From positions 21,745 through 85,744 of the forward strand of contig VMFR01000004.1 in assembly GCA_007376135.1 (NCBI GenBank): a DNA stretch of 64,000 nt, in the 5' to 3' direction. Position numbers and translations under genes: made by a program. The notes under the pieces are model-generated. The model was given only the letters and a program-made list of their open reading frames with translations. It was not told the origin of the DNA and searched no databases. Positions 13,362 through 60,783 of the stretch are shown one piece after another. The number at the start of each line of letters is the position of its first letter. The first letter of the stretch is position 1. The stretch is from Parcubacteria group bacterium Gr01-1014_31 (lineage in GTDB: Bacteria; Patescibacteriota; Patescibacteriia; Buchananbacterales; GWA2-38-13).

Positions 13362-13573
13362 GACGCCTCCTCATTGTGAAAGGTCCGCGGAAACGCAGGC
13401 GATACGTTACCACCCGGTCGATAAAAAAACAACCCCGCGCTCTCCTCAGGGGAAAAAATTCTGGAACGGAAAACTCGTGGCGACGCCGTTCCTCGTCCTC
13501 TCCCCTTTGCGCCCAATCAGGACTTTCGCCCCACACCTTTTTGGTATGGATGAGGGGTATGTCTTTTTACCTT

Positions 13574-13647
13574 TGCGCCCGGCAGGGCTCGAACCTGCGG
13601 CCTCAAGGTCCGCAACCTTGCGCTCTGTCCAGCTGAGCTACGGGCGC
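13574..13647 (-). tRNA. tRNA-Arg (anticodon read as GCG)
   Basis: GCGCCCGTAGCTCAGCTGGACAGAGCGCAAGGTTGCGGACCTTGAGGCCGCAGGTTCGAGCCCTGCCGGGCGCA has a 7-bp acceptor stem, a D-arm, anticodon loop TTGCGGA, T-loop TTCGAGC and discriminator A. No encoded CCA. A 20-bp perfect inverted repeat extends the acceptor stem. Confidence 0.8.
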
Positions 13648-13791
13648 AAAGGTAAAAAGACAATATGAGAGTACACGGGAAAAAGGTGTGGGGCAAGCCT
13701 GCGAACTTCCCGCCAACGGCGGGACGCTCTGTTCAGCGGAGCCCTGCCGGCAGGCAGCTACGGGCGCAAAGGGGAGACAACGATCGCACTC

Positions 13792-14301: not shown

Positions 14302-14515
14302 ATGCCAAATTCCTTACGCTGCGCGTGGACCAAAATTTCTCATCCAGGGCGGTGGGGGTGGGATTCTCTGCCTACGGCAGATCCGCCCGTAACTATCACC
14401 TATGGTGGCGGAGAACCCACGGTACCATTGCTTCCTTTTATACTGAGCGGACCACTCGGGTTTGGTACGCGAAATGTATAGGCAGTATAGAGGTTTTTCC
14501 GCTATTTTTCAAGGC

Positions 14516-15613
14516 TCACGATTGAGGCACGTGGGTCGGGGTTACAGAATTATTTTTTAAGGCATCCGCTTCTTTTAATTGAACAGTGCCTTGTAGCATA
14601 TAATATGGTGCAAATGGTGCTAGCTTCTCAATTATCACCTTGCTCTCATCGCCTGTCAGATACTCATTACATAGAATTGCCCAATCTTTCGAATTGAGGT
14701 GGCCGTAAAGCTGTCTGCGGGCAGCGCTTGCTATTGATCGGTTAATGTGATTTACATCATCCCTGGTTAGTAATAAATTGTGGCTGTTTAGAGGGATTCT
14801 CCGGAATGATAAACAATATTTCGGCGAAATCGTTAATAATACTGTGCCATTTAGAACACCACCAGCTATGTGCGGCGGACAGAACGCTGGCTCTTGGGTT
14901 ACAACAGGATTGTCTGAAGTAATGAAATGGCGATTGTGTGGCGCAATAAGTAAGTGCCATGATTTTTTGCTCATTAGAATTTCATAGATTTCCTTACTCA
15001 AATCCATTGCTTGCTTGAAATAGTGCCCTTCTCCCCCCTCCATCGTAATGGAGTATTTATTGGGGTCTTGCATAAATTTTCTCATCTCTTCAAACTCCTC
15101 GTTAGATGAGAAAGATACCCCTGCTTGTTTAAATTTTTCCCTAAGAGAATCTGGATGTTCAGTTTGAATTTTCTGTAACAATTTAATATGTCCAATATCC
15201 ATATTTTTAAGCCATTCATTAAATGATGGCCCCCGTACCCGCAGTAGGGAAACGAAGGCGGCGATATCAGAACGTTCTCTTTCTGTTGCGGGCAGATTTC
15301 CAATCCTAATTATTTCAGCAAGTACAGCGGCTACAGCACCTTCGTGCTCAGCAAATACCCCCTCCATTACCCTGGTCTTTTGGCCGGTATCCTTTTCCTC
15401 AAAAGTGTATAAATCTTTACTTGTGGCAATATTCGCAATGCTAACTAATAGAGGATTATTTCCTGGTTGATACATGTATATCTGATTACCACCTTCGTTT
15501 GCTGCAAAAAATTTTAAGTAAAATTGCGGAATCCAATGATGGCGCTTGGTGTTCTGAGCAATTTTTTCGTACTTCTCTTTAAATTCTTGGAATGACTCAC
15601 TTACATTTTCCAT
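14516..15613 (-). CDS. Hypothetical protein, DUF4238-like (N-terminal HHWIPQFYLKFF motif). Low GC, likely horizontally acquired.
   Basis: 365-aa ORF with ATG at 15613 in a markedly AT-rich segment. The N-terminal H-x-x-P-x-x-Y-L-x-x-F resembles the DUF4238 signature, but this is a memory-based family call. Confidence 0.55.
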   Translation of the reverse strand: MENVSESFQEFKEKYEKIAQNTKRHHWIPQFYLKFFAANEGGNQIYMYQPGNNPLLVSIANIATSKDLYTFEEKDTGQKTRVMEGVFAEHEGAVAAVLAEIIRIGNLPATERERSDIAAFVSLLRVRGPSFNEWLKNMDIGHIKLLQKIQTEHPDSLREKFKQAGVSFSSNEEFEEMRKFMQDPNKYSITMEGGEGHYFKQAMDLSKEIYEILMSKKSWHLLIAPHNRHFITSDNPVVTQEPAFCPPHIAGGVLNGTVLLTISPKYCLSFRRIPLNSHNLLLTRDDVNHINRSIASAARRQLYGHLNSKDWAILCNEYLTGDESKVIIEKLAPFAPYYMLQGTVQLKEADALKNNSVTPTHVPQS

Positions 15614-15644
15614 ATGTTATATAGTAGACGCAAATATTATCTAT

Positions 15645-15675
15645 GATAAGACCCAGCTATGCAGCTGGGTCTTAT
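15645..15675 (-). terminator. Strong hairpin (14-bp perfect stem gataagacccagct/agctgggtcttatc, loop atgc) downstream of the minus-strand tRNA-Ser region
   Basis: Perfect inverted repeat directly after the pseudo-tRNA/tRNA-Ser transcription unit. The flanking sequence on minus is AT-rich but lacks a clean T-run. Confidence 0.45.
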
Positions 15676-15693
15676 CCGATAAAAAGTTGTTAT

Positions 15694-15830
15694 GGCGATG
15701 GGGCAGGGATTCTCCGCCTTCGGAAGACGACCCGTAGGGTGGAAACCCACCGAACCATTGCTGGTTCAGCAGTTTTTCCGCCTGCGGACTTCGACGGTGA
15801 GCTCAGTCGAACCGCGGATCCGCCGTAATG
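15694..15830 (-). pseudogene. Degenerate tRNA-Ser-like remnant (att-type duplication), not foldable into a canonical cloverleaf
   Basis: Shares AAAACTG..ACCAGCAATGGT..TCG.TGGGTT and a GGAGAATCCC 3' block with the adjacent tRNA-Ser(TGA), but its T-loop and anticodon arm are non-canonical. Confidence 0.35.
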
Positions 15831-15841
15831 TTCATCGAGAA

Positions 15842-15928
15842 CGGAGGGGGTGGGATTCGAACCCACGATACCATTGCTGGTATAACAGTTTTCAAGACTG
15901 TCCGATTCAACCTCTCTCGCACCCCTCC
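15842..15928 (-). tRNA. tRNA-Ser (anticodon TGA)
   Basis: GGAGGGGTGCGAGAGAGGTTGAATCGGACAGTCTTGAAAACTGTTATACCAGCAATGGTATCGTGGGTTCGAATCCCACCCCCTCCG has a 7-bp acceptor stem, anticodon loop CTTGAAA, a long variable arm and T-loop TTCGAAT. Confidence 0.8.
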
Positions 15929-16022
15929 GTTCTCGATGCTATTACACCATGGAGGCGGAGAAGACCCTCGTGCAACACTCTCGCCCGCCTACCGGCAGGC
16001 AGGCCGCTGGATGCGACCTTCC

Positions 16023-16364: not shown

Positions 16365-16774
16365 CGGAGAGGGTGGGATAGTTCGACGGGCTCACTATTA
16401 TTTACCGCCACTCATACTTCGCCAGGCGCAGTACTTTTACTCAACGTTTTAAGTCGAACAAATTCGCCTGCAATCAACGCTTTCTTCTTTGCAACCGACC
16501 AACCTTTCAATTGTCGCTCGCGTGTTTCTGCTTCTTGGTGGGTTGCAAAGCTCTCAGTGTAAACGAGTCGAACACCAGAAAACTTTTTTGTGAAGTTGGA
16601 ATATCCTCTCATATGTTCGTCCAGTCTTCGTTCGACATTATCGGTCATACCAACGTAAAAAGTTTTCTGGTTGCAAAAAAGAATGTAAACATGCCATAAC
16701 ATACCCCAAATTGTGGGCGTAAAGTACTGAGCCATTCGGCACTGAGCTCATGGCCGAAGTGCCTGTCGAAGTAC
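16365..16774 (-). mobile_element. Putative ~0.4-kb low-GC micro-islet at tRNA-Ser(GCT) carrying a GIY-YIG nuclease gene, bounded by a 15-nt duplicate of the tRNA 3' end
   Basis: cggagagggtgggat at 16365-16379 duplicates the tRNA-Ser(GCT) 3' end at 16774-16788. On the minus strand it is followed by TTTTTT. Enclosed DNA is ~43% GC. Confidence 0.4.
16412..16702 (-). CDS. GIY-YIG nuclease superfamily protein (UPF0213/YhbQ-like)
   Basis: MLWHVYILFCNQKTFYVGMTDNVERRLDEH...QLKGWS is a GIY-YIG core with a YhbQ-like N-terminus. The start is chosen at the internal ATG at 16702, with an alternative upstream ATG at 16735. Confidence 0.7.
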   Translation of the reverse strand: MLWHVYILFCNQKTFYVGMTDNVERRLDEHMRGYSNFTKKFSGVRLVYTESFATHQEAETRERQLKGWSVAKKKALIAGEFVRLKTLSKSTAPGEV

Positions 16775-16860
16775 GGAGAGGGTGGGATTCGAACCCACGA
16801 GGGACTTTCATCCCCAACGCCTTAGCACGGCGCCGCTTTCGACCGCTCAGCCACCTCTCC
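16774..16860 (-). tRNA. tRNA-Ser (anticodon GCT)
   Basis: GGAGAGGTGGCTGAGCGGTCGAAAGCGGCGCCGTGCTAAGGCGTTGGGGATGAAAGTCCCTCGTGGGTTCGAATCCCACCCTCTCCG has anticodon loop GTGCTAA, a long variable arm and T-loop TTCGAAT. Confidence 0.8.
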
Positions 16861-17715: not shown

Positions 17716-18288
17716 TCACTGCCATGAGGCCCCATCGACGCGCCAGCCGGCGGTGTTCTTCAGTAGAGTCACCGTCAATTTTTGGTAAAATTGCTGCCGT
17801 CCCGCACCGGTCCGGGTTTCGGAACGCTGCGTCTGCACCACGATCTGCGCTTCCGTTTCCTCGCCGTTGAGGGCGACGATCTCGGCCGACAGTACTTTGG
17901 TCGTGACGCCGTAGAAGCCGTCACCCAGCAGCAGCTGTTGCTGAGCGGCGCGCGCCGTGGCGGCGAATTGCTCCGTCATCAACGGCTGGAGTTGCTGTAA
18001 ATTCGTGCTCCCGCCGTCCGTGGAAAAACTTCCGTAGCGTTCCGCAAAAGTCTTGGCCAGCGCCTCGAGCGTCGCCTGGGTCTTTGGCTCTTTGGTCACC
18101 GGCGGCTCCACCGGTTGAGTTACCGCGCCCCCCGCGGGCGGCAACGTCGTACCTGCCCCGGGCAAAGGGGACGGCTGCCCCAGACCCGCTGGGCGCGCCG
18201 GGCGAGGAGCGCGCGCCACCAACACCAGCGCCAACACCACCAGCAGCGCCAAGACGATTATAGTGATGATCTTCGTCCGCTTGGTCAT
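17716..18288 (-). CDS. Hypothetical membrane-anchored protein, last gene of the T4SS-like block (possible VirB8/TcpC-like NTF2-fold ectodomain; speculative)
   Basis: ATG at 18288 overlaps the virB4-like stop (ATGA). N-terminal TM IITIIVLALLVVLALVLV, a Pro-rich linker, then a ~120-aa soluble domain. Confidence 0.5.
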   Translation of the reverse strand: MTKRTKIITIIVLALLVVLALVLVARAPRPARPAGLGQPSPLPGAGTTLPPAGGAVTQPVEPPVTKEPKTQATLEALAKTFAERYGSFSTDGGSTNLQQLQPLMTEQFAATARAAQQQLLLGDGFYGVTTKVLSAEIVALNGEETEAQIVVQTQRSETRTGAGRQQFYQKLTVTLLKNTAGWRVDGASWQ

Positions 18289-20252
18289 ACGCTTTCACTC
18301 CGATTATCGGCAGCTTTCCGCGTCCCCGGAGCGCCGGTCTGCTCTTCCATCGACTGTGCAAAGTCCTTTTTCGCCTGCTCGATCTCCAACAACTGCCGCG
18401 GGTCCGACGTGATCAGCTGGTCTTCGGCGTACGACGCGACGACCTTGATGGCCGCGTGCTTGTCGCCGGCAAAGAAGATCCCCTCCCCGACGCCGCACTC
18501 CAGCAGCAGGTACTTTTCCCCGTCGGTCAGGACGAACGTTTTGGCGATGAGGTCGATGGATGCGGACGACTGACGCATCAACACCTGGATGGAACTGTTG
18601 GTGACGATCGCCGATCCATACGGCGAAAGCAGGAAATCATTGACGTCCTGGGTGATGGTGGTCACCCCCAGGTAGTACTTGCGGCAACGCTTCACGAGGG
18701 CATAGATGAACTTTGCCGAGTCCTCGTACTGCATCAGCCACCAGGCTTCATCGATGACCATGATGCGGCGCTTCAGCTCGGAGCGCACGACGTTCCAGAT
18801 ATAATTGATAATGGTGTAAATGGCGATCGGCCGCAGCTCGTCCTCCAAATCACGGACGGAAAAGACCACCAGCTGGTTATGGACGTCGATGTTGGTGGGA
18901 CTGTTGAACAAACCGGAGAACGTCCCCTGCGTGTACTTCTGTAACCGAATGACCAGGTCGCCGGACCCTTCCATGCCTTCGAGCACCTCCTGGAAGTCCT
19001 GCATGATCGGGGCCTCCACCGTGGCCAGGTCGGAATTGGCGGTGATGTCTTTCTTGGCGTAGGTTTCCAGCAGCGCGCGGTCAATGAGCGAGTCTTCCTG
19101 TGGAGAGAAGCCAAGCTTGCCCGAATCGCCGATCGGCTTGCCCAGCATGATGCGCAGCAGCCCCTTGAGCGTGATGACCGCGCCGCGGATGATGTCGCCG
19201 GCGCGCTGGTCGCCGACGGGCCGCGGCAGGTCGAACGGATTGAGTTTGCTCTCCGAAGACAGCGAAATATTGATGTACGTGCCGCCGACCGCGTCGCACA
19301 GATGCTGGTACTCGCGCTCGGGGTCGATGATGATGACGTCGGTTCCTAGCATCAGCGACCGCAGCACCTCCAGTTTAATAGTGTAGCTCTTACCGGCGCC
19401 GGAGGTCGCGAACACCACCATGTTGGCGTTCTGCAGGCTGAAACGGTCGAACAAGATCAAACTGTTGTTGTGGCGGTTGATGCCATACAGCACGCCATCG
19501 TCCGAGGTCAGTTCCGACGAAATGAACGGGAATGAGCTGGCGATCGGCGACGAATTCATGTTGAACGCGATCATCAGCATATCCTCGCCCAACGGCATCG
19601 TCGAGGTGAACCCCTGCTCGGCCTGATAGAGCACCTTGCGCGAGTACACCAGCTTGCTGCCGAACAGCGCCTCCACGTCGTCGGTCAGCCGCTCCAGCTT
19701 CTTACGGTCCTCGGCGTAGACCGTCACATACAGCCCGAACTGGAAAAAATGCTCGATCCCCTGGGTCAAATCGTCCCGCAGCTGCTCGATGTCGCGCAAG
19801 GCCGTTTCGCGAATGGGGTCGCGGGGAGCACCTTTCTCGCGGTCGGCCAGGATCTGTGCCTCAAGGTTGCCGACCCGCTTCTTTAGCTGCTTGAGGATGA
19901 CATCCGACCGCACGGGATAGAAGTACATCGAAATGTCCAACGGCAAATTGAGGTTGATGATAGGCGCGAACCACCCGACCGTAATGTACCTGGGGTACCC
20001 GATGACAAACAGCGTCCGCACGAACAGGTCGCCCAGCATCAGGAACGACGGCTTGACCTGGAAAGCCGCCGGCGCGATCAGATCCCGGATGGAAATAAGA
20101 CCTTCGCGGTAGATCCGCTCCTCCTCGAGGATGATCTTCTCCTCGGTGATCTGCCGCTGCTCCAGGCGCTTACGCTCCTCGGCCGACAGCGTCGGGGTCA
20201 AGGGCTTGGCCGCCTGTCTTTCCTCGCGTTCAATTTGCTGTGGTTTGAACAT
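18285..20252 (-). CDS. virB4: VirB4/TrbE/CagE-like type IV secretion ATPase
   Basis: 655 aa. Walker A VVFATSGAGKSYTIK. Walker B RRIMVIDEAWWLM. Overall length and architecture of VirB4-family (AAA_10/DUF87) proteins. Confidence 0.85.
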   Translation of the reverse strand: MFKPQQIEREERQAAKPLTPTLSAEERKRLEQRQITEEKIILEEERIYREGLISIRDLIAPAAFQVKPSFLMLGDLFVRTLFVIGYPRYITVGWFAPIINLNLPLDISMYFYPVRSDVILKQLKKRVGNLEAQILADREKGAPRDPIRETALRDIEQLRDDLTQGIEHFFQFGLYVTVYAEDRKKLERLTDDVEALFGSKLVYSRKVLYQAEQGFTSTMPLGEDMLMIAFNMNSSPIASSFPFISSELTSDDGVLYGINRHNNSLILFDRFSLQNANMVVFATSGAGKSYTIKLEVLRSLMLGTDVIIIDPEREYQHLCDAVGGTYINISLSSESKLNPFDLPRPVGDQRAGDIIRGAVITLKGLLRIMLGKPIGDSGKLGFSPQEDSLIDRALLETYAKKDITANSDLATVEAPIMQDFQEVLEGMEGSGDLVIRLQKYTQGTFSGLFNSPTNIDVHNQLVVFSVRDLEDELRPIAIYTIINYIWNVVRSELKRRIMVIDEAWWLMQYEDSAKFIYALVKRCRKYYLGVTTITQDVNDFLLSPYGSAIVTNSSIQVLMRQSSASIDLIAKTFVLTDGEKYLLLECGVGEGIFFAGDKHAAIKVVASYAEDQLITSDPRQLLEIEQAKKDFAQSMEEQTGAPGTRKAADNRSESV

Positions 20253-24076: not shown

Positions 24077-27000
24077 TTAAATGGTGGGCCGGCTTTTCGG
24101 CGGTTCACCGGGTAATGATTCCGGCGGGATCGAAGGGATCTCCGAGGCGCCAGCCGACCCTTCATTACGCTGTGCCATCTCCTGCAGAGACCTATTGATC
24201 TGGAAGAGAATATCTGCGAGTTCGTCGGCTTGTTCCTGGGTCACCCCCGTCCCCATTGCCGCCGCTGACTCGAAATCTTGGACGCGACCCATCCCTTCCC
24301 GCAGATTCTTGCTCAGGGTATCGAACTTCTTCGCCGCATCTTTTTCGTCCTTACCGGCGCTCTCGCTGGCCCCCTCCTGCACCGCCTGCAGCGATTGGAT
24401 CCCATTGGCGACCTCCTGTAAACCGGTAGCCATCGACTTCAGCGTCGTCTCCAACGATTTAACATCAACTGACGGTAACTGCTTTGCCGCCCGCGTCTGG
24501 GTATCGACTTCCTCCACCACCGCCTGCACCGCAGCGGTACGCTGCCCGGTCGGCGAACCTGCGGGTGCCGCCGATCGCGTTTCTCCCGCTGCCGCGAAAC
24601 CGGCCGACGACTCGCGGGATGTAGGCGAAGGGGCTGCCGCAGCGGATGGCGCAGGTTTGGCTTTCGGCGGCGGAACGGCCCGCACCGACGGCGGCGCAAT
24701 GCCCTCGGCCGCAGCCTCGGCTGCGCGGCCGACATTTTCTTCTGCCGCGGTGGCGATATTCTCGGCCTGCTCAACCAGATCCATAAGACCCGCAGAGAAA
24801 CCCTGGATCTCTCCCATGCGCTGTTCGATCTGCTCCATCTCTCCGCTCTGTTCGGCGATCGCTTGCTGCGCCTTACGCAGTGCGGCGACATTACCCGTTG
24901 ACTGGGCCCGCTGCGCCGCAGCACTCTGCTGCTGCAAGGCAGCCCCTACCGCGAGACGGCGCTTGTCCAGATGCTCATACTCCTTGCTCATGGCCGGGAG
25001 CTCCTGCTCCCCCATCGTCTTTGCTTCCCCGAGCCGCCGCCGAGCGATCGCCAACTCCTCCTGTGCGAGAACAAGATCACTTACGTCAGCAGCGTTCTTT
25101 AATACCAAATCATCCCATTCGCCGATCTCTTTATCGACGCCTTTGATCTGACTGCCCACCGCGTTGAAACGGTCTTGTGCGGTTTTCACGGCGTCATTGG
25201 CGCGCTTGCGTTCCGCACCCGGCGCGGCCTTGGCCTGGCGCGCTTGCTGCTTTTGCAGGTCTTTCTCTGCGGCTTGATGCTGTTGGACCAATCCCGACCG
25301 TTTCTCAGTGAGCTCACGATAGTTGAAATCGCGCTTTGTTTTTGCGGTCGAGAGTTCCTGACCCGCTTCTTTCAGGCCGCTGCCCCTTGCCTTGGGAGCG
25401 AGGCCCAAACGGCGGCGCTTCACGGTGTAATCAAGCTGGTCCCGAATGATCTGTGCTCGCTGGGCGCGGTCGTGGGCTGCCCGGGCCCCGGCATCATCCC
25501 CCTGGGTTGCCTTTTCCTCCGCTTCCTTATTGTTCGCTTCCAATTCGGATTGGGCATTGCTTAATTGCTGGGCGAGCTCGTCCTTGCTCAAAGTACCCGC
25601 GGCGTCACGGACCGCGGCAGCGAACGTTTCCAGGGATTGCACAGATTCCTCAACCCGGCGCCGGTAATCGGCTTGAACGCCATCAAACGCCTGGGAATCC
25701 TTCGCGACAACGCCTTGTTGTTCGGTAACGGCGTCGGCGGCGGCGACAACCTCCTGCTGCTTGACCCGCGCGAGCGTTTGGGCTTCTTCCTGGGCCTGAT
25801 AATTCCCCTCTTCGGCGGCCTTGCGGGCCTGCGCGTTCAATTCCGCGAGTTCAACCTGCCGTTGGTCGCGCACCTTAACGCGATTCCCCAATTCCAGTTG
25901 GCTGGCCTGTAATGCTTGCTCCTTGGCCCCGATCTCCTGCTTGGCGCCAACCACTTCCTCGCGGTTTCCCTGGCGCGCCGCCAAAAACTTCTCTTCCACG
26001 GCAGTCAGCGCCTGCTGGCCCTTACTGACCGGTACGGGCTTGGGTTGCTGCGCCTGCACCGCGCGCTCCTTGGCCTGCACCTCCTGCTGCTGTTTTGCGA
26101 TGCGCTGTTGTGCGGCACGCAAATCCCGTTCCGCGGCCTGGGCCAGGCGCTCCTGCCTCCCGGCTTCTTCCTGGTTGCCTTGGTCTGCGGCCCGCTTCCT
26201 CAATCGGTGATGCACCTGGGCGCGACGGGCAAGCTCATCGTGATTCTGTTCCAATTCCGCCAATTTGCCGCGGCTTCCCGATAGCTCCTGCTGCGCGCGC
26301 GCCGCTACATTCTCAGGCTTTGCCGCCTCACGACGTTCTTGGGTGTATCGAACGCGCTCCTGCAGCGTCGTCAAGAGTTCAGGGAAAGCCTGGTCGGCCT
26401 GCCGCGCGTTGTCCAGCGCCTCTTCCTTGCCCGCCACGTCGCGACGCTTGGTGCTGATTTGCTGGTCAAGTTGCGCCAGCTGCTGAGCGGACTGGTCGGC
26501 CTGCTGGCGCGCTGCCGCGATCTCCTGGGGCGTCAGACCAATACCTGCCTGCTGCACCGCCGCCTGGTTGATCTGCACCGCCTCGCCCAACGCCTGCTGG
26601 TCAGCACGATGCTGTACGAGCGTACGCCTGGACTCCTGCAGGCGAAGGTACTCGGCGTCGTAGGCCTGACGCTTTACGCCAACGTCCTGGCGCGCCCTTC
26701 CATGATGTTCGACAGCCGCCGCAACGCGCGTTTCCTGTGCGGCCTTGGCGGCGTTCTGCGCGTCGATCTGCTCGTTCAGCTGCGCCAACGGTGCGGCGAT
26801 CTTTTCCTCGGCGGTGGCGGCCAGCGCCTGCTCACGGGTCGCTTCCTCAAGCGCCTGCTGTTCGGCCAAAGCATTACCACTCGCCCTCGCGGCGTTCAAA
26901 CGCTGGCTCGCAGCGTTCTGGTTGGTGAGATGTTGGTCGCGTTCACGAGTCAAGACATCGCGATTTCCCATCAACGTCGTCAACTGGGTTTGTATCGCCT

Positions 27001-30000
27001 GCAAAGCTGATCCCTCTTGTCCCACTGCTGCGGCCGCTGCGGGCAGCTCCACCTTAGCGTTCTGCAGCTCAATGCGGGCATGCTCAACATTTTCCTCCTG
27101 GGTCTGCACCACCTGCTCCTGTTCGTTGACGCGTTGATTGGCCGCGCCCAACTGCCCCGCGCTGCGGTCATAGGCCTCTTGAGCGGCGTTCACATCGCGC
27201 GCCTCCGCATACCGGGCAGCCTGCTGGCGCACGAGCGTCGAGGATTTCAGCTTACTGCGGTCGGCCTCCAGCGCTGCCAGCTCCCCGCGCTCTCCCTCGA
27301 GCGCCGCTTGCGCCCCCTCGGTCGCCGACCCCCACTGCGGACTGACCTCGGCCAAAACTTTTTCAGCGATATCATCCAGCTCCGCATCCGGCAGCTGGTC
27401 GAGCGATTTTTGCAATGCCGCAATGAACGCCTGACTGTTGGGCCCCGCACTCGCGGCTGCCCTCTGGCGCAACGCCTCGGCTTGCCGCAGAGCCTCCTGG
27501 CGCTGGTCCACCACGCCCCGCTGGTCTGCGACCTGTTTGTTGAGGGCGTCCAACTGCGGCTGCACCTTGGCCTGGGAATCGCGCGCCAGATCGCGTTCCT
27601 TGATGGCTTCCCGGTCATTCACGGTAAAACCCAATTGGTCGCCGCGCGCTTTTGCCTGCTCCGCCCGCTGGCGCGCCGCCTGGCCTTTGGCGATATGTGC
27701 ATCCGTTTCCCCAAGCAACTCGCCGCGCTGGCCTTCCAGCTGATCGAGTTTTTGCTGTTCCGCGGTCAGCGCGGTATTTGCCTGCCGCACCTGCGCTTCG
27801 GCCCGGGTGGACTCCTGGGCGCGCGAACCTTGCTGGCCCGCTGCGCCCGTCAAAAGTTTTCCGATCTGTACATCCGGCTTTTGCTGCCGTCGGCGATGAA
27901 TTTCTACGATCTCCTCGTCGGTGATGGCGCGCTCCGACTTCTCCTGCGGCGGCAGCGTTTCATCGGGCTTGAGCGTGCGACCGCGGTAGCGGGCACCCTT
28001 TGCTTTATTGCCGGCCTTATCGGTCACCTCCAGTTCATCCAGGAACTTCCGCGTCTGCTCGGACAACGTGTGGGCGTTATCGTTCACGCCCAACGAGTGC
28101 GCCAGATATTCTTCCGGCGTTTCCTGGTCGAACAGTTGCTGCTGCTCCTCGGACAACGTGCCTCGGAACGCCTGACGCTGCTCGTCGTTCAGCTGATTGG
28201 CAAGAGTATGACCGTACTCGTGGCGACGGGCGGTGAAGCGGCTACCGAACGCGGCGTTGTTATGCAGGGACAGCGTTGAAGCGGTATCCAACCGTTTTTT
28301 GAATTCTGCCTCGCGCTGCTGGGCGCTGACCTCTCCGGCCGCCAGTGAGGAAACGTCCTTATCCTGGGACATCTGCCGCAGCGCCTCACCCTGCTGATTC
28401 TCCGCTATCGCGGCATCCTTGTAGCGATAGCCGGAAACGGCACCCGACGCATCGCGGAGCTCCTCAACGCGGCCAGCGGCATTGCCCTCCTTGAACTCCG
28501 CCGCTGCCCATTGCCCGACCACGCGGTCAGCGTACTGCTTGTCCGCGTCGGCTGGTTTCAATGTTTGATACTTCGCAGCATAGGCATCGTGCAATTCTTC
28601 ATTCGTCACAGCGTGGGGCTGCTTACCCAACCGTTGCGCGGTTTCCTGACGGAAGGCAACCCCTCTGCCAACCAGCTCTTTCCTGTAATCCTCCGCCAAA
28701 TTCTTGGCGACGATATCCTTGTTCAATTTCCGCTCCGCGGTTGACTCATCGTAGTTGACGGCGGTCATCCCCGGAACGACGCCATACCGCTGACCGGCTT
28801 CGGCGGACTCGAAGTTCACGCCGATACCGGCCACCGCCCTGCGTCCATATTCTGCCAATGGGCCTTCGGCGTAGCCCTCGGCTGGCCGCCGCTCGATGGA
28901 GGCAACACCCCGCATCGCATCAAGGCTCTCGCTCCGCTTTTCTTCCACCTGCTCATGGCGGACGATCGCCGACGCCGCATACAGCGTCCCGGCGCGAATC
29001 TCTTCCTGGTGCAGGCGTCCATACGCTTCATTGGCCTCGGGCTCCGACATCCCGGCGGCAATCAGCCGCTGATACGCTTCCTGCGAAGCGGCCTGGACCT
29101 CGGGGCTGTAGGTTTCCATCAACGGCCGTCCACCCTTCGGGGCGTACCCATCATGCAGCCGCCATTCTTCGGGGACCTCCTCATCTTGCAGCGCCGCAGG
29201 TTTTCCGTTGATATCGGTCGCCCCTGGTATACCATGTTGCAAATATTCCAGCCATTTAGCGGCGGTTCGGCTTTTGACGTAGGTTTCCAACTCGGGCGAG
29301 AGCGGCCCCGTACGAGCGGCGGCATAACTTGTAGGTTCGTAGGTCTTTCCTGATTTTGTAAACTGCTCCTCTGTATACTTATCTAATTCAATCCCAGGGG
29401 TGCCATCGTAGTTTTTCACCCCAGCCAAATTCATGATCCTTTCAACCGCTACCGCCTGCTGAGAGGAGATATTCTTCTGCCCAAAAAGGTTGGCTACCCC
29501 ATGGTGGCCCTTCGCCTTCAGCTGGTCGTAGACCGACCTGATATCCAGTGCCATGGAACCGGTTTTTTGGTCAAAACGGAAGCCGGCGAATTCCGCGGCG
29601 CGGGGCTGCAGGCCATGGCCGCGTTGCGCCACCACGCGACCGAAAAAGACGGTATCGAACTTCGCCGACGCGATCTTACCCAAGCGGTCCATCCGGCCCA
29701 TGCGAGAATGGACGACCTTTCCGCCCGACAGCACGTCTTCAAACGGCTGCGCGGTGGGATGGAATTTGAAAAAGGCTTTGCCTTCAGTCTTGGCAACAAA
29801 ATTTTCCATTTTTCCGCGGCCGATGATCGTACCGAACTCTTCGCCGAACTTCTCCTCGAGTTTCCGCAATACATTCGCGCGGATATTCGGGTTGTTATGG
29901 ATGGTCGGAGCCGCTTTGTGCTCCGCCGCCAGCTCTTCCCGGGCGCTGTCTTCAGACACCAGGACGTTTTCCACGTCCCCGGTGGGGCGCCCCTTGCTGT

Positions 30001-31822
30001 CCAGCACGGGGCGCGTGAACCCATAGCCAAACCCGCGCAGAAGCGCGCCCTCTTCCGATTGGTCCTTGAGCAGTACCCCGAGGTCGCCCGCGGACCGCTT
30101 GCCGAATGCCCCGCCGATGCGCTTCATCAAATGTTCACGGAAACTGGTTTGTGAGTGTTCTTTATCTCCGTACTCATCGGGGTACCGCTGCGCCATGTAG
30201 CCCATGTAGTCGTCGGTTTGGTTGGCCTTGTTCAACGCAAGCGCGGCCGCGAACGCGCGTACCTGGTTCTTGTTCTTGATGGCCAGATCGAACTCGCTGG
30301 CCTTTTCCGTTTCCGTCAAGGAATGCAGCTCGGACATTTCCTTATTGACGAGCGAACGGAATGCCTTGTCCCCTTCCTTGGTTTTTTCGCCCTCCAGCCG
30401 AGGAATAGCTCCGACGGTCACCCCCGCGACCTTGAGCCGCTGCCAACGCAAGCGCGGCTTGGTCGTACTGTTGAAAAAGTCGGCCATGTCGCCAACCGAT
30501 TTACCGAACGATTGCTGCTCAGAGAGCTGCCGCGCGCGCGTCCAACCCTGCCGACGAAGGGTGGGGCTCAATATCCCGGCAATCGGCGAATACCACCGTT
30601 TGTCCTGAACGCGCCGACCGAGCCATCGGTCAGTCAGCCGGCCCGCGGCGAAAGTACCCTCGCGCGCCAGCCAGCCGGCGCCGCGCAACGGAGAGGTACC
30701 CGCGCGGATGCCGGCGCGGGCCATGCGCTGGCCGTACGACCGTAGACTTCCCATGACCGAGCCGGCAAACTGCGAACCGGCAACTCCGGCCTTCTGGGCG
30801 GCCACCAGCCCGCCCAGCATCAGGCAGGTCATCACCAAAAACTTCAACACGTTCTCTTTCTCTCCGGCCTTGCCGATGCCCACCCGCAATGACGGTTCCA
30901 GTTGGGCAACACCCCCTTCGCTCAAGGTGGTGGTCGGCGCACGCGTGGTATCCAGCGTTTCCGTGAAGGCCTGTTCCGATGTGGCGATGGCCAACCAGAA
31001 GAAGAACATCAAGATCGGCCCGACGGTTACATATTTGGAGAAAGTCTGCCACCACTCGCGGCTGTAGCGCTCCCCCTGCGGGAACGCCGACAGTACGTAC
31101 GCCAAGGGTGAAAGGATGATGAGGATCCACAACGCGACGATGCGCAGCGCGAACACCACGAGGTACGCCAAGATGACGGAAAACGCGATGATGAGCATGA
31201 TGGTCGCCAGCAGCAGCGACAGGAAGAGATAGAACAGCGCGATATTCTCCTCGCCCGAACCGGGGAGGAACGCATCCTGGCTGATGGCGAACAGCTCTGC
31301 CAGCCCAAACTTGGCGTAGAGGTTGCCGGCCGTCACCTGCACGATGGCGTTGGCGAACGTCAGGGTCACCACCTGGGCGGCATCAATGAGCAGGCCGGAG
31401 ATGACCTTGCTGAAGTTGACGAGGATCGCCATCAACAGCAATTTAGGTAGCAACCGTTTGAGGTTGTACGACTCCAGGCGCAGGATGGTCGCGACCGCAA
31501 TGAGCAGCAGCACGACCACGAAGAACATGTTGCCAATGTCGCGCACCAGCACCCACCCGAGGTTGACCGCTTCAAAATTGATGAAATCGTTGTAGACGAT
31601 GACCGACGTCAGCAGACCCGTGATCATCACGGTCAGCTGCCCGACGAGACCGGCGACCGCCTGCAGCACGTAGCTCAGGATGAGGTAGACGTACCCCGAC
31701 AGGTTGCGGATGAACGTCTGCGCCGACGCGGGCTGCGCGAACAGCAAACCCATGACCAGCAGCGCGGGCCACCAGCGGCGGCTCGTTGCGGTCAGCACTA
31801 TGGTCAATCGGCGTAAGCGCAT
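24077..31822 (-). CDS. Giant (~2,580 aa) protein with an N-terminal VirB6/TrbL-like polytopic membrane domain fused to a long hydrophilic region that includes >1,000 aa of Gln/Ala/Glu/Arg-rich coiled coil
   Basis: Signal-peptide-like N-terminus (MRLRRLTIVL...AQPASAQ), then ~6 TM helices over ~300 aa. Residues ~1,200-2,300 are heptad-like and Q/A/E/R-rich, followed by a Pro/Ala/Ser-rich segment and an acidic C-terminus. Start at the ATG at 31822, with an alternative at 31846. Confidence 0.7.
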   Translation of the reverse strand: MRLRRLTIVLTATSRRWWPALLVMGLLFAQPASAQTFIRNLSGYVYLILSYVLQAVAGLVGQLTVMITGLLTSVIVYNDFINFEAVNLGWVLVRDIGNMFFVVVLLLIAVATILRLESYNLKRLLPKLLLMAILVNFSKVISGLLIDAAQVVTLTFANAIVQVTAGNLYAKFGLAELFAISQDAFLPGSGEENIALFYLFLSLLLATIMLIIAFSVILAYLVVFALRIVALWILIILSPLAYVLSAFPQGERYSREWWQTFSKYVTVGPILMFFFWLAIATSEQAFTETLDTTRAPTTTLSEGGVAQLEPSLRVGIGKAGEKENVLKFLVMTCLMLGGLVAAQKAGVAGSQFAGSVMGSLRSYGQRMARAGIRAGTSPLRGAGWLAREGTFAAGRLTDRWLGRRVQDKRWYSPIAGILSPTLRRQGWTRARQLSEQQSFGKSVGDMADFFNSTTKPRLRWQRLKVAGVTVGAIPRLEGEKTKEGDKAFRSLVNKEMSELHSLTETEKASEFDLAIKNKNQVRAFAAALALNKANQTDDYMGYMAQRYPDEYGDKEHSQTSFREHLMKRIGGAFGKRSAGDLGVLLKDQSEEGALLRGFGYGFTRPVLDSKGRPTGDVENVLVSEDSAREELAAEHKAAPTIHNNPNIRANVLRKLEEKFGEEFGTIIGRGKMENFVAKTEGKAFFKFHPTAQPFEDVLSGGKVVHSRMGRMDRLGKIASAKFDTVFFGRVVAQRGHGLQPRAAEFAGFRFDQKTGSMALDIRSVYDQLKAKGHHGVANLFGQKNISSQQAVAVERIMNLAGVKNYDGTPGIELDKYTEEQFTKSGKTYEPTSYAAARTGPLSPELETYVKSRTAAKWLEYLQHGIPGATDINGKPAALQDEEVPEEWRLHDGYAPKGGRPLMETYSPEVQAASQEAYQRLIAAGMSEPEANEAYGRLHQEEIRAGTLYAASAIVRHEQVEEKRSESLDAMRGVASIERRPAEGYAEGPLAEYGRRAVAGIGVNFESAEAGQRYGVVPGMTAVNYDESTAERKLNKDIVAKNLAEDYRKELVGRGVAFRQETAQRLGKQPHAVTNEELHDAYAAKYQTLKPADADKQYADRVVGQWAAAEFKEGNAAGRVEELRDASGAVSGYRYKDAAIAENQQGEALRQMSQDKDVSSLAAGEVSAQQREAEFKKRLDTASTLSLHNNAAFGSRFTARRHEYGHTLANQLNDEQRQAFRGTLSEEQQQLFDQETPEEYLAHSLGVNDNAHTLSEQTRKFLDELEVTDKAGNKAKGARYRGRTLKPDETLPPQEKSERAITDEEIVEIHRRRQQKPDVQIGKLLTGAAGQQGSRAQESTRAEAQVRQANTALTAEQQKLDQLEGQRGELLGETDAHIAKGQAARQRAEQAKARGDQLGFTVNDREAIKERDLARDSQAKVQPQLDALNKQVADQRGVVDQRQEALRQAEALRQRAAASAGPNSQAFIAALQKSLDQLPDAELDDIAEKVLAEVSPQWGSATEGAQAALEGERGELAALEADRSKLKSSTLVRQQAARYAEARDVNAAQEAYDRSAGQLGAANQRVNEQEQVVQTQEENVEHARIELQNAKVELPAAAAAVGQEGSALQAIQTQLTTLMGNRDVLTRERDQHLTNQNAASQRLNAARASGNALAEQQALEEATREQALAATAEEKIAAPLAQLNEQIDAQNAAKAAQETRVAAAVEHHGRARQDVGVKRQAYDAEYLRLQESRRTLVQHRADQQALGEAVQINQAAVQQAGIGLTPQEIAAARQQADQSAQQLAQLDQQISTKRRDVAGKEEALDNARQADQAFPELLTTLQERVRYTQERREAAKPENVAARAQQELSGSRGKLAELEQNHDELARRAQVHHRLRKRAADQGNQEEAGRQERLAQAAERDLRAAQQRIAKQQQEVQAKERAVQAQQPKPVPVSKGQQALTAVEEKFLAARQGNREEVVGAKQEIGAKEQALQASQLELGNRVKVRDQRQVELAELNAQARKAAEEGNYQAQEEAQTLARVKQQEVVAAADAVTEQQGVVAKDSQAFDGVQADYRRRVEESVQSLETFAAAVRDAAGTLSKDELAQQLSNAQSELEANNKEAEEKATQGDDAGARAAHDRAQRAQIIRDQLDYTVKRRRLGLAPKARGSGLKEAGQELSTAKTKRDFNYRELTEKRSGLVQQHQAAEKDLQKQQARQAKAAPGAERKRANDAVKTAQDRFNAVGSQIKGVDKEIGEWDDLVLKNAADVSDLVLAQEELAIARRRLGEAKTMGEQELPAMSKEYEHLDKRRLAVGAALQQQSAAAQRAQSTGNVAALRKAQQAIAEQSGEMEQIEQRMGEIQGFSAGLMDLVEQAENIATAAEENVGRAAEAAAEGIAPPSVRAVPPPKAKPAPSAAAAPSPTSRESSAGFAAAGETRSAAPAGSPTGQRTAAVQAVVEEVDTQTRAAKQLPSVDVKSLETTLKSMATGLQEVANGIQSLQAVQEGASESAGKDEKDAAKKFDTLSKNLREGMGRVQDFESAAAMGTGVTQEQADELADILFQINRSLQEMAQRNEGSAGASEIPSIPPESLPGEPPKSRPTI

Positions 31823-31835
31823 GGTTGACAGTTCA

Positions 31836-32837
31836 TTATGCGGCAACGCGATACTCCTCCTCCGCTTCTTCCGAGGCCAACTGCTCGTCTTCCATCACCG
31901 TAGTGGCGTATTCGGATTCCAGCATGGCTCCCTGGGATGCGCGTTTTTTTCGCTGGTGCCGGGCATACGACCACACGTACAGGGCCGAAATCGTCCAGGT
32001 CGGGATAATGCCAACGATCGGTATCCACTCCACCAGCATCGTAAAAAGCTTGCTCGCCACCCACGCCATCCAGCCGATCTCATGCTGTTTAATGAAGAGC
32101 CTCGCCCCCAGCATCAGCGCAAGACACGCGAAATCGAACAGCTGGTCAATGCCCAGCCCGATACTGACGTCAAAGATATCCACCAGATCGTTGATGATGG
32201 AAACTGCCAGCACCAGCAGATACGGCCAATCGGAGTTCTGCGCCGCGCCGCTGATGAACCCGGCGACCGAGCGTCCTTGGGCCGCCACTTTTTGCTTATT
32301 ATCTTTCGATAAACGCCCGCCCATACCTCCCATGCGGCGCAACTCCCGCAGGCTCGCAGCTTGCTCACGGCGCAAGGCCACTTCCCGTTCCAGCGCTTGC
32401 TGGAGAGCGTCGCTCTCTTCTGTTGCCTGCGCCTGCTGCTGAGTCTCCACGCCTGCCTCCTTGTTCCCCCGCCGCTGCGCCATCGTGTCGGTGAACTGTT
32501 CCAGCTTCGGCGCCAGGGTCATCTCCCCGGGACGCGACGGCCGTTGGCCTGCATTCCTGAATGTTTCCGCTTCATGTTGCTGCCGGACCGCCACGAATGC
32601 ATCCCGCGCGCTGGCAAACCCATCCGGACCGCCCCGGGACGCCTTTCCGCGGTTTGCCCGCTGCCGGTCGCGCTGGCGCATCGCGGCAAGCTCTTGCGCA
32701 TATCGCTGCTCGGGTACCGCCGTTTCCATCTCCATCACCGGAACGTCCAGCTCCCCTTCGGCCTGGGCGGACGCGCCTTTCCCCGGCCGCGGTGGCGGCG
32801 GTGGTGCTGCGGGTCGGCGTGTCGTAAGGTCTGCCAT
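31836..32837 (-). CDS. Hypothetical membrane protein (C-terminal four-TM bundle, Pro/Ala/Gln-rich N-region)
   Basis: Start chosen at the ATG at 32837 (MADLTTRR), 5 nt after the giant gene's stop. The C-terminal hydrophobic segments begin WPYLLVLAVSIINDLV... Confidence 0.5.
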   Translation of the reverse strand: MADLTTRRPAAPPPPPRPGKGASAQAEGELDVPVMEMETAVPEQRYAQELAAMRQRDRQRANRGKASRGGPDGFASARDAFVAVRQQHEAETFRNAGQRPSRPGEMTLAPKLEQFTDTMAQRRGNKEAGVETQQQAQATEESDALQQALEREVALRREQAASLRELRRMGGMGGRLSKDNKQKVAAQGRSVAGFISGAAQNSDWPYLLVLAVSIINDLVDIFDVSIGLGIDQLFDFACLALMLGARLFIKQHEIGWMAWVASKLFTMLVEWIPIVGIIPTWTISALYVWSYARHQRKKRASQGAMLESEYATTVMEDEQLASEEAEEEYRVAA

Positions 32838-32842
32838 ATGCT

Positions 32843-60394: not shown

Positions 60395-60783
60395 TTTCTG
60401 CTGCAGAACCGCGACGATTCAGCCCGGGTGGTAGAATTGGTAGATTCACCCCACACCTTTAGCCCCTTCAAAAAATATCCGACGCACAATTAGTAAATCA
60501 TCAAGCCGCGGTGGTGGAATTGGTAGACACGCATGGTTCAGGGCCATGTGATCGCAAGGTCGTGAGAGTTCGAGTCTCTCCCGCGGCAATTATCGTTGGA
60601 TATCGTCATGATAGGGGCTAAAGGTGTGGGGCAAGCGTCCCGCCAACGGCGGGATGATCGCAAGGTCGTGAGAGTTTCCCGCCACCGAGATTCCCCACAT
60701 TAATGGACGGCGGGACCCCGCCAACGGCGGTGGCGAGTCTCTCCCCGGGCATATCCCAACTTCTGCAGCAGAAATTTGAAAGG
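60395..60783 (+). repeat. Inverted-repeat-bounded tRNA cassette: 24-bp perfect outer inverted repeats and ~19-bp inner inverted repeats enclose tRNA-Leu(CAG), which is nested inside a split tRNA-Leu-like pseudogene
   Basis: Outer repeats are tcctttcaaatttctgctgcagaa (60395-60418) and ttctgcagcagaaatttgaaagga (60760-60783). Inner repeats are ccccacacctttagcccct (60446-60464) and aggggctaaaggtgtgggg (60612-60630). There is a pseudo 5' half GCCCGGGTGGTAGAATTGGTAGATTCACC (60420-60448) and pseudo 3' pieces gatcgcaaggtcgtgagagtt (60655-60675) and cgagtctctccccgggca (60734-60751). Confidence 0.6.
60505..60588 (+). tRNA. tRNA-Leu (anticodon CAG)
   Basis: GCCGCGGTGGTGGAATTGGTAGACACGCATGGTTCAGGGCCATGTGATCGCAAGGTCGTGAGAGTTCGAGTCTCTCCCGCGGCA has anticodon loop TTCAGGG, a long variable arm and T-loop TTCGAGT. 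Confidence 0.85.

Follow-up and report, generated by a model that had tools for sequence, protein, structure and literature searches.

The 64,000-nucleotide stretch of DNA analysed here, called the window below, lies on contig VMFR01000004.1 (positions 21,745 to 85,744) of Parcubacteria group bacterium Gr01-1014_31. It contains two tRNA genes, tRNA-Arg(GCG) and tRNA-Leu(CAG), each of which is carried on a short hairpin-bounded segment that splits an older copy of the same tRNA gene. We refer to these arrangements as the Arg nest and the Leu nest, to the segments as cassettes, to their inverted-repeat ends as arms, and to the two gene copies as inner and outer. The arrangement is a repeated one, and the splits fall at loop positions of the tRNA cloverleaf. 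The window is bacterial, has about 61% GC and contains the core genes ClpB, RadA, RecG, KsgA, Sua5, LeuRS, UvrA and RNase J; this RNase J is 100% identical to the one recorded for Gr01-1014_31, a member of the Candidate Phyla Radiation (CPR). ARAGORN and Rfam identify four tRNAs in it, see Table 1; tRNA-Arg and tRNA-Leu have arms of one family (A), tRNA-Ser(TGA) has arms of a second family (B), and tRNA-Ser(GCT) has none. That every tRNA might carry the motif, as considered in an earlier note on this DNA, did therefore not hold.

The core of the A-type arms, CCCCACACCTTT, occurs exactly four times in the 64 kb, in one inverted pair that brackets tRNA-Arg and another that brackets tRNA-Leu, compared with 0.29 occurrences expected by chance; none of 100 shuffles reaches four. 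The repeat search shows that the Arg arms form a perfect inverted repeat of 15 nt (13528-13542/13680-13694) and the Leu arms one of 19 nt (60449-60467/60613-60631). When one mismatch is allowed, still only these two arm pairs are found in the 64 kb, and their interiors are unrelated. Single arms are not palindromic in themselves. The A family can be written as CCCCACACCTTT...AAAGGTGTGGGG and the B family as TCC(C)GCC...GGC(G)GGA, and both are known empty and tRNA-loaded. In addition, a small hairpin, TCCCGCCAACGGCGGGA, is located at 13708-13724 and 60638-60654 and recurs, nearly unchanged, at 60716-60733, and the 13-mer CCGCCAACGGCGG is present in three copies where 0.02 are expected. This cccgcc-aac-ggcggg hairpin can be taken as the minimal empty form of the B family. 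The earlier note had already reported the arm pair around tRNA-Arg, the same core at tRNA-Leu and the two hairpins of the Leu locus; all are present, only the left Arg arm lies at 13529-13542 and not at 13521-13534, the other coordinates being within 1 nt.

For comparison, loci from genome-collection, metagenome and other independent assemblies were collected (L001-L027), and the genome collection, metagenomes and viral contigs were scanned with the arm pair. In the genome collection, matches were found only in metagenome-assembled genomes (MAGs) of the CPR, with at most two matches per MAG. The metagenome scan added further loci, including L012, an ortholog of the Arg nest. From their motif and flanks, L010, L011 and L013 look like CPR members of the family. 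Five loci (L006/L009, L007/L014 and L008) were set aside, as they are without the extra C's and their palindrome extends outward; they are probably unrelated long palindromes that hold the 11-mer by chance.

The nest architecture recurs across independent assemblies from NCBI, ENA, JGI and Logan, and the 643-bp intergenic region of the Leu locus has a base-for-base match in an independent Logan assembly of raw reads, so the architecture is not an assembly artefact. The idea that chance, low-complexity GC-rich sequence or an assembly chimera created the nests has only the high GC content of the window in its favour; against it stand this recurrence, including the exact copy in a separate assembly, and the shuffle expectations given above, and we consider its probability negligible. 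The earlier note had also allowed for a motif scattered by chance over many non-tRNA sites. Within the 64 kb only the two tRNA sites exist, and elsewhere in CPR the motif is a recurrent palindrome and not low-complexity noise.

In the Arg nest, the inner tRNA-Arg is carried on a 165-bp insert that splits the older tRNA-Arg between T-stem and T-loop. On the tRNA strand the order is: leader; GCGCCCGTAGCT (acceptor and start of the D-arm); a palindromic insert; a D-arm remnant; TCCCGCCGTTGGCGGGA; variable region; T-stem 5' strand and CTTG; left arm; spacer; intact tRNA-Arg; spacer; right arm; decayed T-loop; T-stem 3' strand; acceptor 3' strand; and trailer. The outer and inner copies share collinear direct repeats of 17 nt (100% identical) and 18 nt (89%). 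The 17-nt sequence AGCTACGGGCGCAAAGG, at 13636-13652 and 13756-13772, was noticed earlier as a duplicate of the tRNA-Arg 5' end and is the 5' end of the outer copy. In total, three concentric inverted repeats accompany the collinear repeats. The closing stem is a perfect inverted repeat of 22 nt, rather than the 20 bp first reported, and lengthens the inner acceptor stem to 22 bp. The repeat formed by 13762-13783 and 13493-13514 is 22 nt long, 91% complementary, and is the outermost helix of the whole-nest fold. The 17-nt hairpin is not a continuation of the arm, as the earlier note had it. In the four-ortholog alignment it occupies exactly the 17 columns where L005 retains an anticodon arm, CAAGGTTGCGGACCTTG, i.e., it takes the place of the anticodon arm of the outer copy, and it is 17/17 identical in L002 and L021. 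The segment with the decayed T-loop is represented by an intact TTCGAGCCCTGCCGGGCGCA in L012/L021.

In the Leu nest, the insert with the inner tRNA-Leu measures 183 bp and interrupts the older tRNA-Leu where D-arm and anticodon stem join. Here the order is: GCCCGGGTGGTAGAATTGGTAGA, which is 88% identical to the inner gene; the arms enclosing the intact tRNA-Leu; CAAGCG; the 17-nt hairpin; variable arm and T-stem strand; two hairpins dividing the T-loop; and CGAGTCTCTCC-CCGGGC-A. The outer acceptor has its complement at 60745-60751, and the whole-nest fold pairs the outer 3' acceptor region with 60422-60428. The acceptors of the two copies differ (outer GCCCGGG/CCCGGGC, inner GCCGCGG/CCGCGGC) but the differences are compensated, which indicates that outer and inner tRNA-Leu were once separate functional alleles, before one of them broke. 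Where the window has the 17-nt hairpin, a decayed anticodon arm (..TGGTTCACCCC..) is found in the orthologs L003, L015 and L017. The shared cassette architecture of the Arg and Leu loci, which the earlier note recognised, is thus non-random; what had been missed is the nesting in a disrupted older copy.

Table 1. Positions of the features in the window (empty cells, nothing given).
Feature	Position	Strand	Basis or remark
tRNA-Arg(GCG), inner, intact	13573-13648	-	ARAGORN; Rfam tRNA, 68.7 bits
tRNA-Ser(TGA), intact	15841-15929	-	ARAGORN, Rfam
tRNA-Ser(GCT)	16774-16860	-	ARAGORN, Rfam
tRNA-Leu(CAG), inner, intact	60505-60588	+	ARAGORN, Rfam
Core CCCCACACCTTT, Arg pair	13529-13540 / 13682-13693	+ / -	
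Core CCCCACACCTTT, Leu pair	60449-60460 / 60620-60631	+ / -	
Outer Arg 5' leader and first acceptor bases	13762-13783	-	pairs with 13493-13514
Outer Arg 5' portion	13694-13769	-	direct repeats to inner gene; collinear blastn-short fragments; four-ortholog alignment
Outer Arg acceptor 5' strand	13756-13768	-	within 13694-13769
Outer Arg palindromic insert	13741-13755	-	
Outer Arg D-arm remnant	13725-13742	-	
17-nt hairpin TCCCGCC-AAC-GGCGGGA	13708-13724		GTT loop on tRNA sense strand
Outer Arg T-stem 5' strand and CTTG	13694-13707	-	
Arg right A-type arm AAAAAGGTGTGGGG	13680-13693		identical in L002, L005, L021, L026
Arg closing stem, leader side on minus strand	13641-13662		pairs with 13560-13581
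Arg closing stem, trailer side on minus strand	13560-13581		pairs with 13641-13662
Arg left A-type arm CCCCACACCTTTTT	13529-13542		repeat search
Outer Arg 3' portion: decayed T-loop CGAAAG, T-stem 3' strand, acceptor 3' strand	13507-13528	-	alignment
Outer Arg acceptor 3' strand and trailer	13493-13514	-	pairs with 13762-13783
tRNA-Ser relic, variable arm to 3' end	14354-14432	-	T-loop split by two hairpins
Empty 31-nt B-type hairpin	14382-14412		in Ser relic T-loop
Second small hairpin	14367-14381		in Ser relic T-loop
Ser(TGA) nest	15690-16000	-	B-type arms TCCGCC...GGCGGA in anticodon loop of older Ser copy
Outer Leu 5' portion: acceptor GCCCGGG, D-arm, TCA	60422-60448	+	direct repeat, 24 nt, 88% to inner gene
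Leu left A-type arm (core CCCCACACCTTT + AGCCCCT)	60449-60467		19-nt inverted repeat, 100%
Leu right A-type arm	60613-60631		repeat search
17-nt hairpin TCCCGCCAACGGCGGGA, outer Leu anticodon-arm region	60638-60654		window lineage only
Outer Leu variable arm and T-stem 5' strand	60655-60676	+	direct repeat, 22 nt, 100% to inner gene
Two hairpins in outer Leu T-loop, between TT and CGA	60677-60733		
B-type hairpin TCCCGCCACC...ACGGCGGGA	60677-60715		outer Leu T-loop
Hairpin CCCCGCCAACGGCGGTGG	60716-60733		outer Leu T-loop
Outer Leu T-loop rest, T-stem 3' strand, acceptor 3' strand (CCCGGGC A)	60734-60751	+	direct repeat, 18 nt, 89%

Two further details of the Leu locus can be added. Hairpins of the TCCCGCC type start at 60638, 60677 and 60716, i.e., with a spacing of exactly 39 nt, and the loop of the middle one, gagattccccacattaatgg, resembles the junction of the outer D-loop and the left arm, tagattcaccccacacctttag (60440-60462). 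In the orthologs a small element with inverted ends CCCCGTTAGACAATGG/CCATTGTCTAACGGGG is found in the outer tRNA-Leu D-loop, where GGTAGAC is duplicated (L003 7305-7410; L017 2315-2420; L015 around 2715), and a similar end follows the decayed anticodon loop.

Arg nests with the same junctions exist in four further organisms (L002, L005, L012/L021 and L026), and orthologous Leu nests in three (L003, L015 and L017). In L018, L019 and L020, among them more distant relatives, a plain tRNA-Leu(CAG), without outer fragments, is found at the same SecG-SBP-tRNA-RNase J position. The plain sites indicate that the Leu nest is the derived state, with a doubt caused by L018 that is taken up below. The nests can also be layered. 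L021 contains three generations of tRNA-Arg, each with its own leader/trailer stem: the outermost copy is split at the D/anticodon junction by the middle copy, whose T-loop in turn holds the A-type cassette with the live gene. The outermost layer is confirmed by L027. The 5' part of the outer tRNA-Arg in L005 is identical to the inner gene in 54 of 54 positions.

Inserts in cloverleaf loops (anticodon loop 35/36 and 37/38, T-loop, D-arm region) bring introns to mind. The outer genes would then be functional, the hairpins and cassettes would be removed from the RNA, and the inner tRNA would be an intron-encoded gene. The inserts are indeed GC-rich helices, one insert recurs in various tRNAs and at various positions, which is also reported for the mobile tRNA introns of archaea (PMC10714607; PMC3293823), and the outer tRNA-Arg of L005 can be restored in silico: after removal of the cassette ARAGORN calls tRNA-Arg(GCG) in 33 of 169 junction variants, with a mutated T-loop. 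The nesting, too, is supported by this restoration. However, an anticodon arm is entirely missing from the outer tRNA-Arg of the window, L002 and L021, and there the same removal gives 0/169 tRNA calls each. The outer tRNA-Leu also lacks an anticodon arm, the T-loops of the outer copies are mutated (TGAAAGC, CGAAAGT), and lineage-specific insertions distinguish the outer copies of relatives. No intron ribozyme or intron family is found by Rfam, even at E up to 5. To our knowledge, neither a bulge-helix-bulge motif nor a splicing endonuclease is known from bacteria. An intron-like origin is thus highly improbable.

At tRNA-Ser(TGA) a nest is formed by arms of the B family, which lie in the anticodon loop of an older Ser copy (insertion point between cTTG and AAAAc). 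This older copy is identical to the live tRNA-Ser(TGA) at 26 of 33 positions in its 5' part and 42 of 50 in its 3' part, and its T-loop holds one more hairpin. The empty 31-nt hairpin in the T-loop of the nearby tRNA-Ser relic is identical, in 27 of 30 positions, to the two arms of the loaded Ser(TGA) cassettes (window and L002) with the cargo omitted. Hence, the B family is found loaded and empty, at different loop positions (T-loop and anticodon loop). Between the window and L002, identity is 79% for the live tRNA-Ser(TGA) and its immediate flanks, about 90% for the relic DNA around it and about 91% for the neighbouring DNA, and the outer arm ends are identical. This diverged cargo between conserved arms indicates that the cargo has been replaced. 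Furthermore, the 5' part of the outer Ser copy in L021 is identical to the live Ser gene of L005. At the Ser(TGA) locus of L002 (5030-5450) an additional outer layer of about 86 nt is seen.

Beside the Ser nest a low-GC patch (47%, 14354-15790) contains an open reading frame (ORF) of the DUF4238 family (14516-15613, minus strand) between two tRNA-Ser relics; the patch looks like a small island integrated at tRNA-Ser. In L019 (1938-2320), the Kerfeldbacteria ortholog of the Leu locus, the plain tRNA-Leu(CAG) precedes two serial displaced 3' fragments that start in the T-loop (21 nt and 12 nt, both exact), as might be left if the 3' end was repeatedly replaced by insertions. Such observations raise the question of whether the nests are scars of integrase-bearing islands, which would have integrated repeatedly in the T- or anticodon loop with a replacement tRNA segment and later been deleted, the hairpins being former island-end terminators. 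The loops of tRNA genes are reportedly classical attachment sub-sites of integrative elements. Apart from this, the serial fragments of L019 and the DUF4238 islet agree with the idea, and the CCCGCC/GGCGGG stems are similar to terminators of L001, L004 and L024. However, integrase events give direct repeats and the displaced piece is normally 3' only, while here a complete gene stands between a 5' half and the 3' half complementary to it, with inverted and not direct repeats at the junctions. Each of at least four nests would require two independent events whose break points match exactly, and no integrase gene was found in the window. We therefore regard island scars as improbable.

The A-type arms are not restricted to tRNA genes when other CPR assemblies are considered. 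An identical 12-nt core is shared by the two window loci, L001-L005 and L010-L013, and the assemblies that contain it span 32% to 61% GC. Outside the lineage its usual form is CCCCCACACCTTTT/AAAAGGTGTGGGGG, found as compact hairpins. In the Uhrbacteria MAG L004 (4150-5861), two compact A-type hairpins, separated by about 100 nt, come after a 16S rRNA gene and before a protein-coding gene; neither a spacer tRNA nor a 23S gene is present in this region. In L010, a contig with 32% GC, compact hairpins lie on either side of an aldolase gene. In L001, L010, L011 and L013 the arms surround 50-110 nt of non-tRNA cargo, mostly between convergent genes. Low-GC copies are flanked by TTTAC on both sides, and the window copies by TTCG/TTCA on the left and CAAG on the right, without a direct repeat. 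One A-type arm pair is nested in another in L013 (528-703), and in L001 (5055-5213) the right arm with its TTTACAT flank is repeated in tandem.

Rfam searches, at gathering and at permissive E-values, matched only tRNA and rRNA, both at the window loci and in the non-tRNA cargo of L001, L004, L010, L011 and L013, so the outer shells and cargos appear to belong to no described RNA family (Y RNA-like, intron or similar). The compact copies in L004, L010 and L001 have short T runs and are positioned after genes, and outside the window loci the A-type element may act as a terminator. For the window loci themselves an intrinsic terminator was rejected, as no terminator-like site was found at either.

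Comparison of the window with L021 reveals which parts of the Arg nest are conserved. The divergence is large: the neighbouring acyltransferase retains 70% identity as a protein and 47% at its third codon positions, and the intergenic DNA outside the nest has, by eye, no recognisable similarity. In the nest, identity is 27/28 in the arms, 17/17 in the 17-nt hairpin, 29/31 in the 5' spacer and 12/13 in the proximal closing stem; in the distal 3' spacer it is 9/18. The 12-bp core varies hardly at all; inward of it the stem is element-specific and complementary, with eight pairs that change on both sides. The covariation score is 0.273, compared with 0.102 in shuffles, and none of 500 shuffles reaches it. 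In the Leu cassette, the arm extension varies among orthologs (AGCCCCT, TGCCC, TGTTCCT) yet remains paired, and L017 has one compensated pair within the core. Also the outer leader/trailer stems differ in sequence by lineage and, judged by eye, keep their complementarity in each: UCUCCCCUU/AAGGGGAGA in the window, CUUACUCUCCUCUCCUU/AAGGAGAGGAGAGUAAG in L021 and CUUCUCCUU/AAGGAGAAG in L005.

The predicted folds are far more stable than those of shuffled sequences. The minimum free energy is -90.9 kcal/mol for the Arg cassette (z = -10.1) and -86.8 kcal/mol for the Leu cassette (z = -8.8), and for the whole nests it is -166.5 kcal/mol (Arg, z = -11.9) and -156.7 kcal/mol (Leu, z = -6.6). The predicted shape is a cloverleaf within a cloverleaf, closed by the outer acceptor helix. 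The 17-nt hairpin takes the place of the anticodon arm, and the outer T-stem leads over the A-arm helix and the closing stem to the inner tRNA. Long helices thus flank the mature RNA, as processing stems would, with a perfect stem of 22 bp and an arm helix of 14-19 bp. A long closing stem on every tRNA is unsupported, as the z-scores of the leader/trailer duplex are strong at the cassettes only.

Could all of this be explained at the RNA level, with stems that evolved in place for precursor processing (e.g. as RNase III sites), tRNA-like pieces that are local duplications, and nothing mobile? The stable folds, the covarying stems and the conservation of arms and closing stems where the neighbouring DNA is saturated all agree with this, and shorter leader/trailer pairing is present at several other CPR tRNAs. 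However, stems evolved in place do not account for the same 12-nt core at two different tRNAs, nor for its empty copies and non-tRNA cargo in unrelated CPR assemblies of 32-53% GC. One B-type hairpin, interior included, occurs in the T-loop at one site and in the anticodon loop at another. The outer halves are exactly complementary with one split point, which is the product of an insertion and not of a tandem duplication, the flanks differ for each layer, and plain orthologous sites exist. A purely RNA-level origin is therefore rather unlikely.

We suggest instead that the nests are replacement tRNA cassettes, bounded by hairpins, that were inserted into the loops of tRNA genes, and that the nested fold is now kept as precursor RNA structure. 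This is the explanation we favour, and we consider it probable, though by no means certain. The inserts, of about 165-185 bp, would have arrived as units, with inverted-repeat ends and an entire tRNA gene that brings its own closing stem of leader and trailer. The presumed landing sites are between T-stem and T-loop for Arg, the D-arm/anticodon-stem junction for Leu and the anticodon loop for Ser(TGA). Each insertion would destroy the older copy, and the cell would live because the insert supplies a working replacement. As a single-copy essential tRNA gene tolerates an insertion only together with a replacement, only events of the type same tRNA in same tRNA would persist, i.e., selection would act as a filter. 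The process would recur, with up to three generations per locus and with the live gene of one lineage as a relic in another, and the cargo would be exchangeable between conserved arms.

Most likely a single precursor would be transcribed from the locus and would fold as one cloverleaf inside another. In it, arms and closing stems would separate the inner pre-tRNA from the outer halves homologous to it and form long double-stranded sites for processing. Such a role in isolation and processing would explain why arms and stems are conserved amid saturated neighbouring DNA. Of the candidate explanations in the earlier note, a mobile element and recombination scars point in the right direction, and processing stems are probably the reason why the stems are kept now.

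Several observations weigh against this proposal. The covariation count is no proof of selection, as part of it stems from non-orthologous palindromes, whose complementarity is due to descent. The A-type arms are decaying in Leu orthologs, with two uncompensated A.C mismatches in L015 and one in L017, so the constraint on the arms is not uniform. Arm conservation as strong as that seen over saturating divergence is unexpected for dead transposon ends. Promoter and terminator consensus scans of both window loci found none, although by eye candidate -10-like boxes can be seen in the 5' spacers, and co-transcription is therefore assumed. The inner-type allele is found without a nest in L018, a relative no more distant than some that bear nests, and this makes the polarity of the Leu change uncertain. 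No clear target-site duplication can be defined for the cassettes, and with only two A-type copies per genome in the lineages seen, the element is not a high-copy one. A Pfam search of 30 ORFs found no transposase, integrase, reverse transcriptase or other recombinase in the 64-kb window. Finally, two orders of events are conceivable: the cassette may have come in already loaded, the empty hairpins perhaps being emptied cassettes, or its cargo may have entered a hairpin that was there before.

It can be speculated further that the replacement cassettes belong to an undescribed CPR insertion system that targets the loops of tRNA genes. Its units would be hairpin-bounded, with at least two arm families, empty or loaded with a tRNA, and self-rescuing when loaded; the 12-nt core would be the recognition site of a factor common to CPR lineages. 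We put this forward tentatively, as a possibility with the odds against it. If true, loaded units would destroy and replace the resident gene, creating nested generations and horizontal sweeps of tRNA alleles, and the system would be a natural element of the cleave-and-rescue type for RNA genes, a bacterial counterpart of the archaeal mobile tRNA introns. Four scans of viral contigs for compact and loaded arms gave zero matches and thus no evidence for a phage vector. Other known roles of short repeats were rejected. A DNA-uptake sequence does not agree with only four arms in 64 kb, and an operator for a dimeric repressor does not agree with an arm spacing from near zero, in the compact hairpins of L004 and L010, to about 160 nt. 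In integron attC sites the cargo would lie beside the hairpin rather than between arms, and repetitive extragenic palindromes (REP/REPIN) are excluded by the low copy number, the non-palindromic single arms and the lack of a Y1 transposase in the window.

Several known systems share features with the replacement cassettes. As in integrative elements that target tRNA genes, a tRNA gene is the target, T-loop and anticodon-loop sub-sites are used, the incoming DNA restores the tRNA, and fragments lie beside the live gene. However, the cassette is only about 170 bp and encodes no integrase, supplies the whole tRNA gene and not just a 3' segment, has junctions that are inverted repeats and not direct att repeats, and leaves the old gene as two complementary halves around the new one. 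Like miniature inverted-repeat transposable elements (MITEs), foldback elements and Pack-MITEs, the cassettes are short and non-coding, share the core of their terminal inverted repeats while interiors are unrelated, exist as empty and cargo copies, and can be nested, element in element (L013, L003). They differ from MITEs in that no clear target-site duplication could be defined, only two A-type copies exist in the 64 kb and each sits at a tRNA, an autonomous element was found neither among the 30 ORFs of the window nor, with such arms, on viral contigs, and the arms are conserved at orthologous positions over saturating divergence, unlike dead transposon ends.

Archaea have mobile non-canonical tRNA introns, with one insert sequence recurring in various tRNAs and at various positions (Fujishima 2010 as summarised in PMC10714607; Sugahara 2012, PMC3293823). 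These introns and the disruption of archaeal tRNA genes by mobile elements resemble the nests in the GC-rich helical inserts in various cloverleaf loops, the tRNA fragments near live genes and the link to mobile DNA. In the window, in contrast, the host is bacterial, the interrupted gene is not restored by splicing, and the insert carries a working gene. Intervening sequences of bacterial rRNA genes and RNase III leader/trailer stems are similar in that a hairpin loop of a stable RNA gives way to an insert whose ends pair as a long helix, and in that helices enclose the mature RNA. However, the rRNA works after excision, while here, as read from sequence alone, the host copy no longer works and the product comes from the payload.

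The tRNA-Ser(GCT) gene, which is without arms, is accompanied by a different type of insert. After its T-loop a 394-bp insert (16380-16773) contains a small GIY-YIG nuclease gene (16412-16735, minus strand), the only mobility enzyme that Pfam identified in the 30 ORFs. The 15 nt ATCCCACCCTCTCCG are present in the tRNA (16774-16788) and as a displaced copy at 16365-16379. In the close relative L002 the site is without the insert, with flanks 91% identical. This is like the free-standing homing endonucleases that insert with a duplicated gene end (T4 seg/mob, PMC2988022; fungal mitochondrial GIY-YIG), unlike the Arg and Leu cassettes, which encode no nuclease and duplicate the entire gene. Further along there is a gene for a TraG-like ATPase (18285-20252), and downstream of it the region 24077-42589 holds two giant ORFs of 2589 and 3248 amino acids (minus strand).

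We class the nests as a real and unusual architecture, and probably as an undescribed form of tRNA gene replacement mediated by mobile DNA. A literature search by sequence words and by topic gave no account of this palindrome or of nested bacterial tRNA genes, only archaeal analogies (PMC3293823; PMC10714607). For annotation the nests are a warning, as tRNA finders list the inner genes alone, the relics add to the apparent intergenic space, and the arms can be mistaken for terminators or transposon ends. A palindrome with a conserved core is moreover common to several CPR assemblies. If the proposed replacement is correct, the tRNA genes of these bacteria with tiny genomes would not be static, as cassettes would land inside the gene that they replace and leave a readable stack of generations. 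This would provide a direct, datable view of tRNA gene disruption and of the origin of hairpin inserts in tRNA loops, so far discussed mainly for archaeal introns and split tRNAs.

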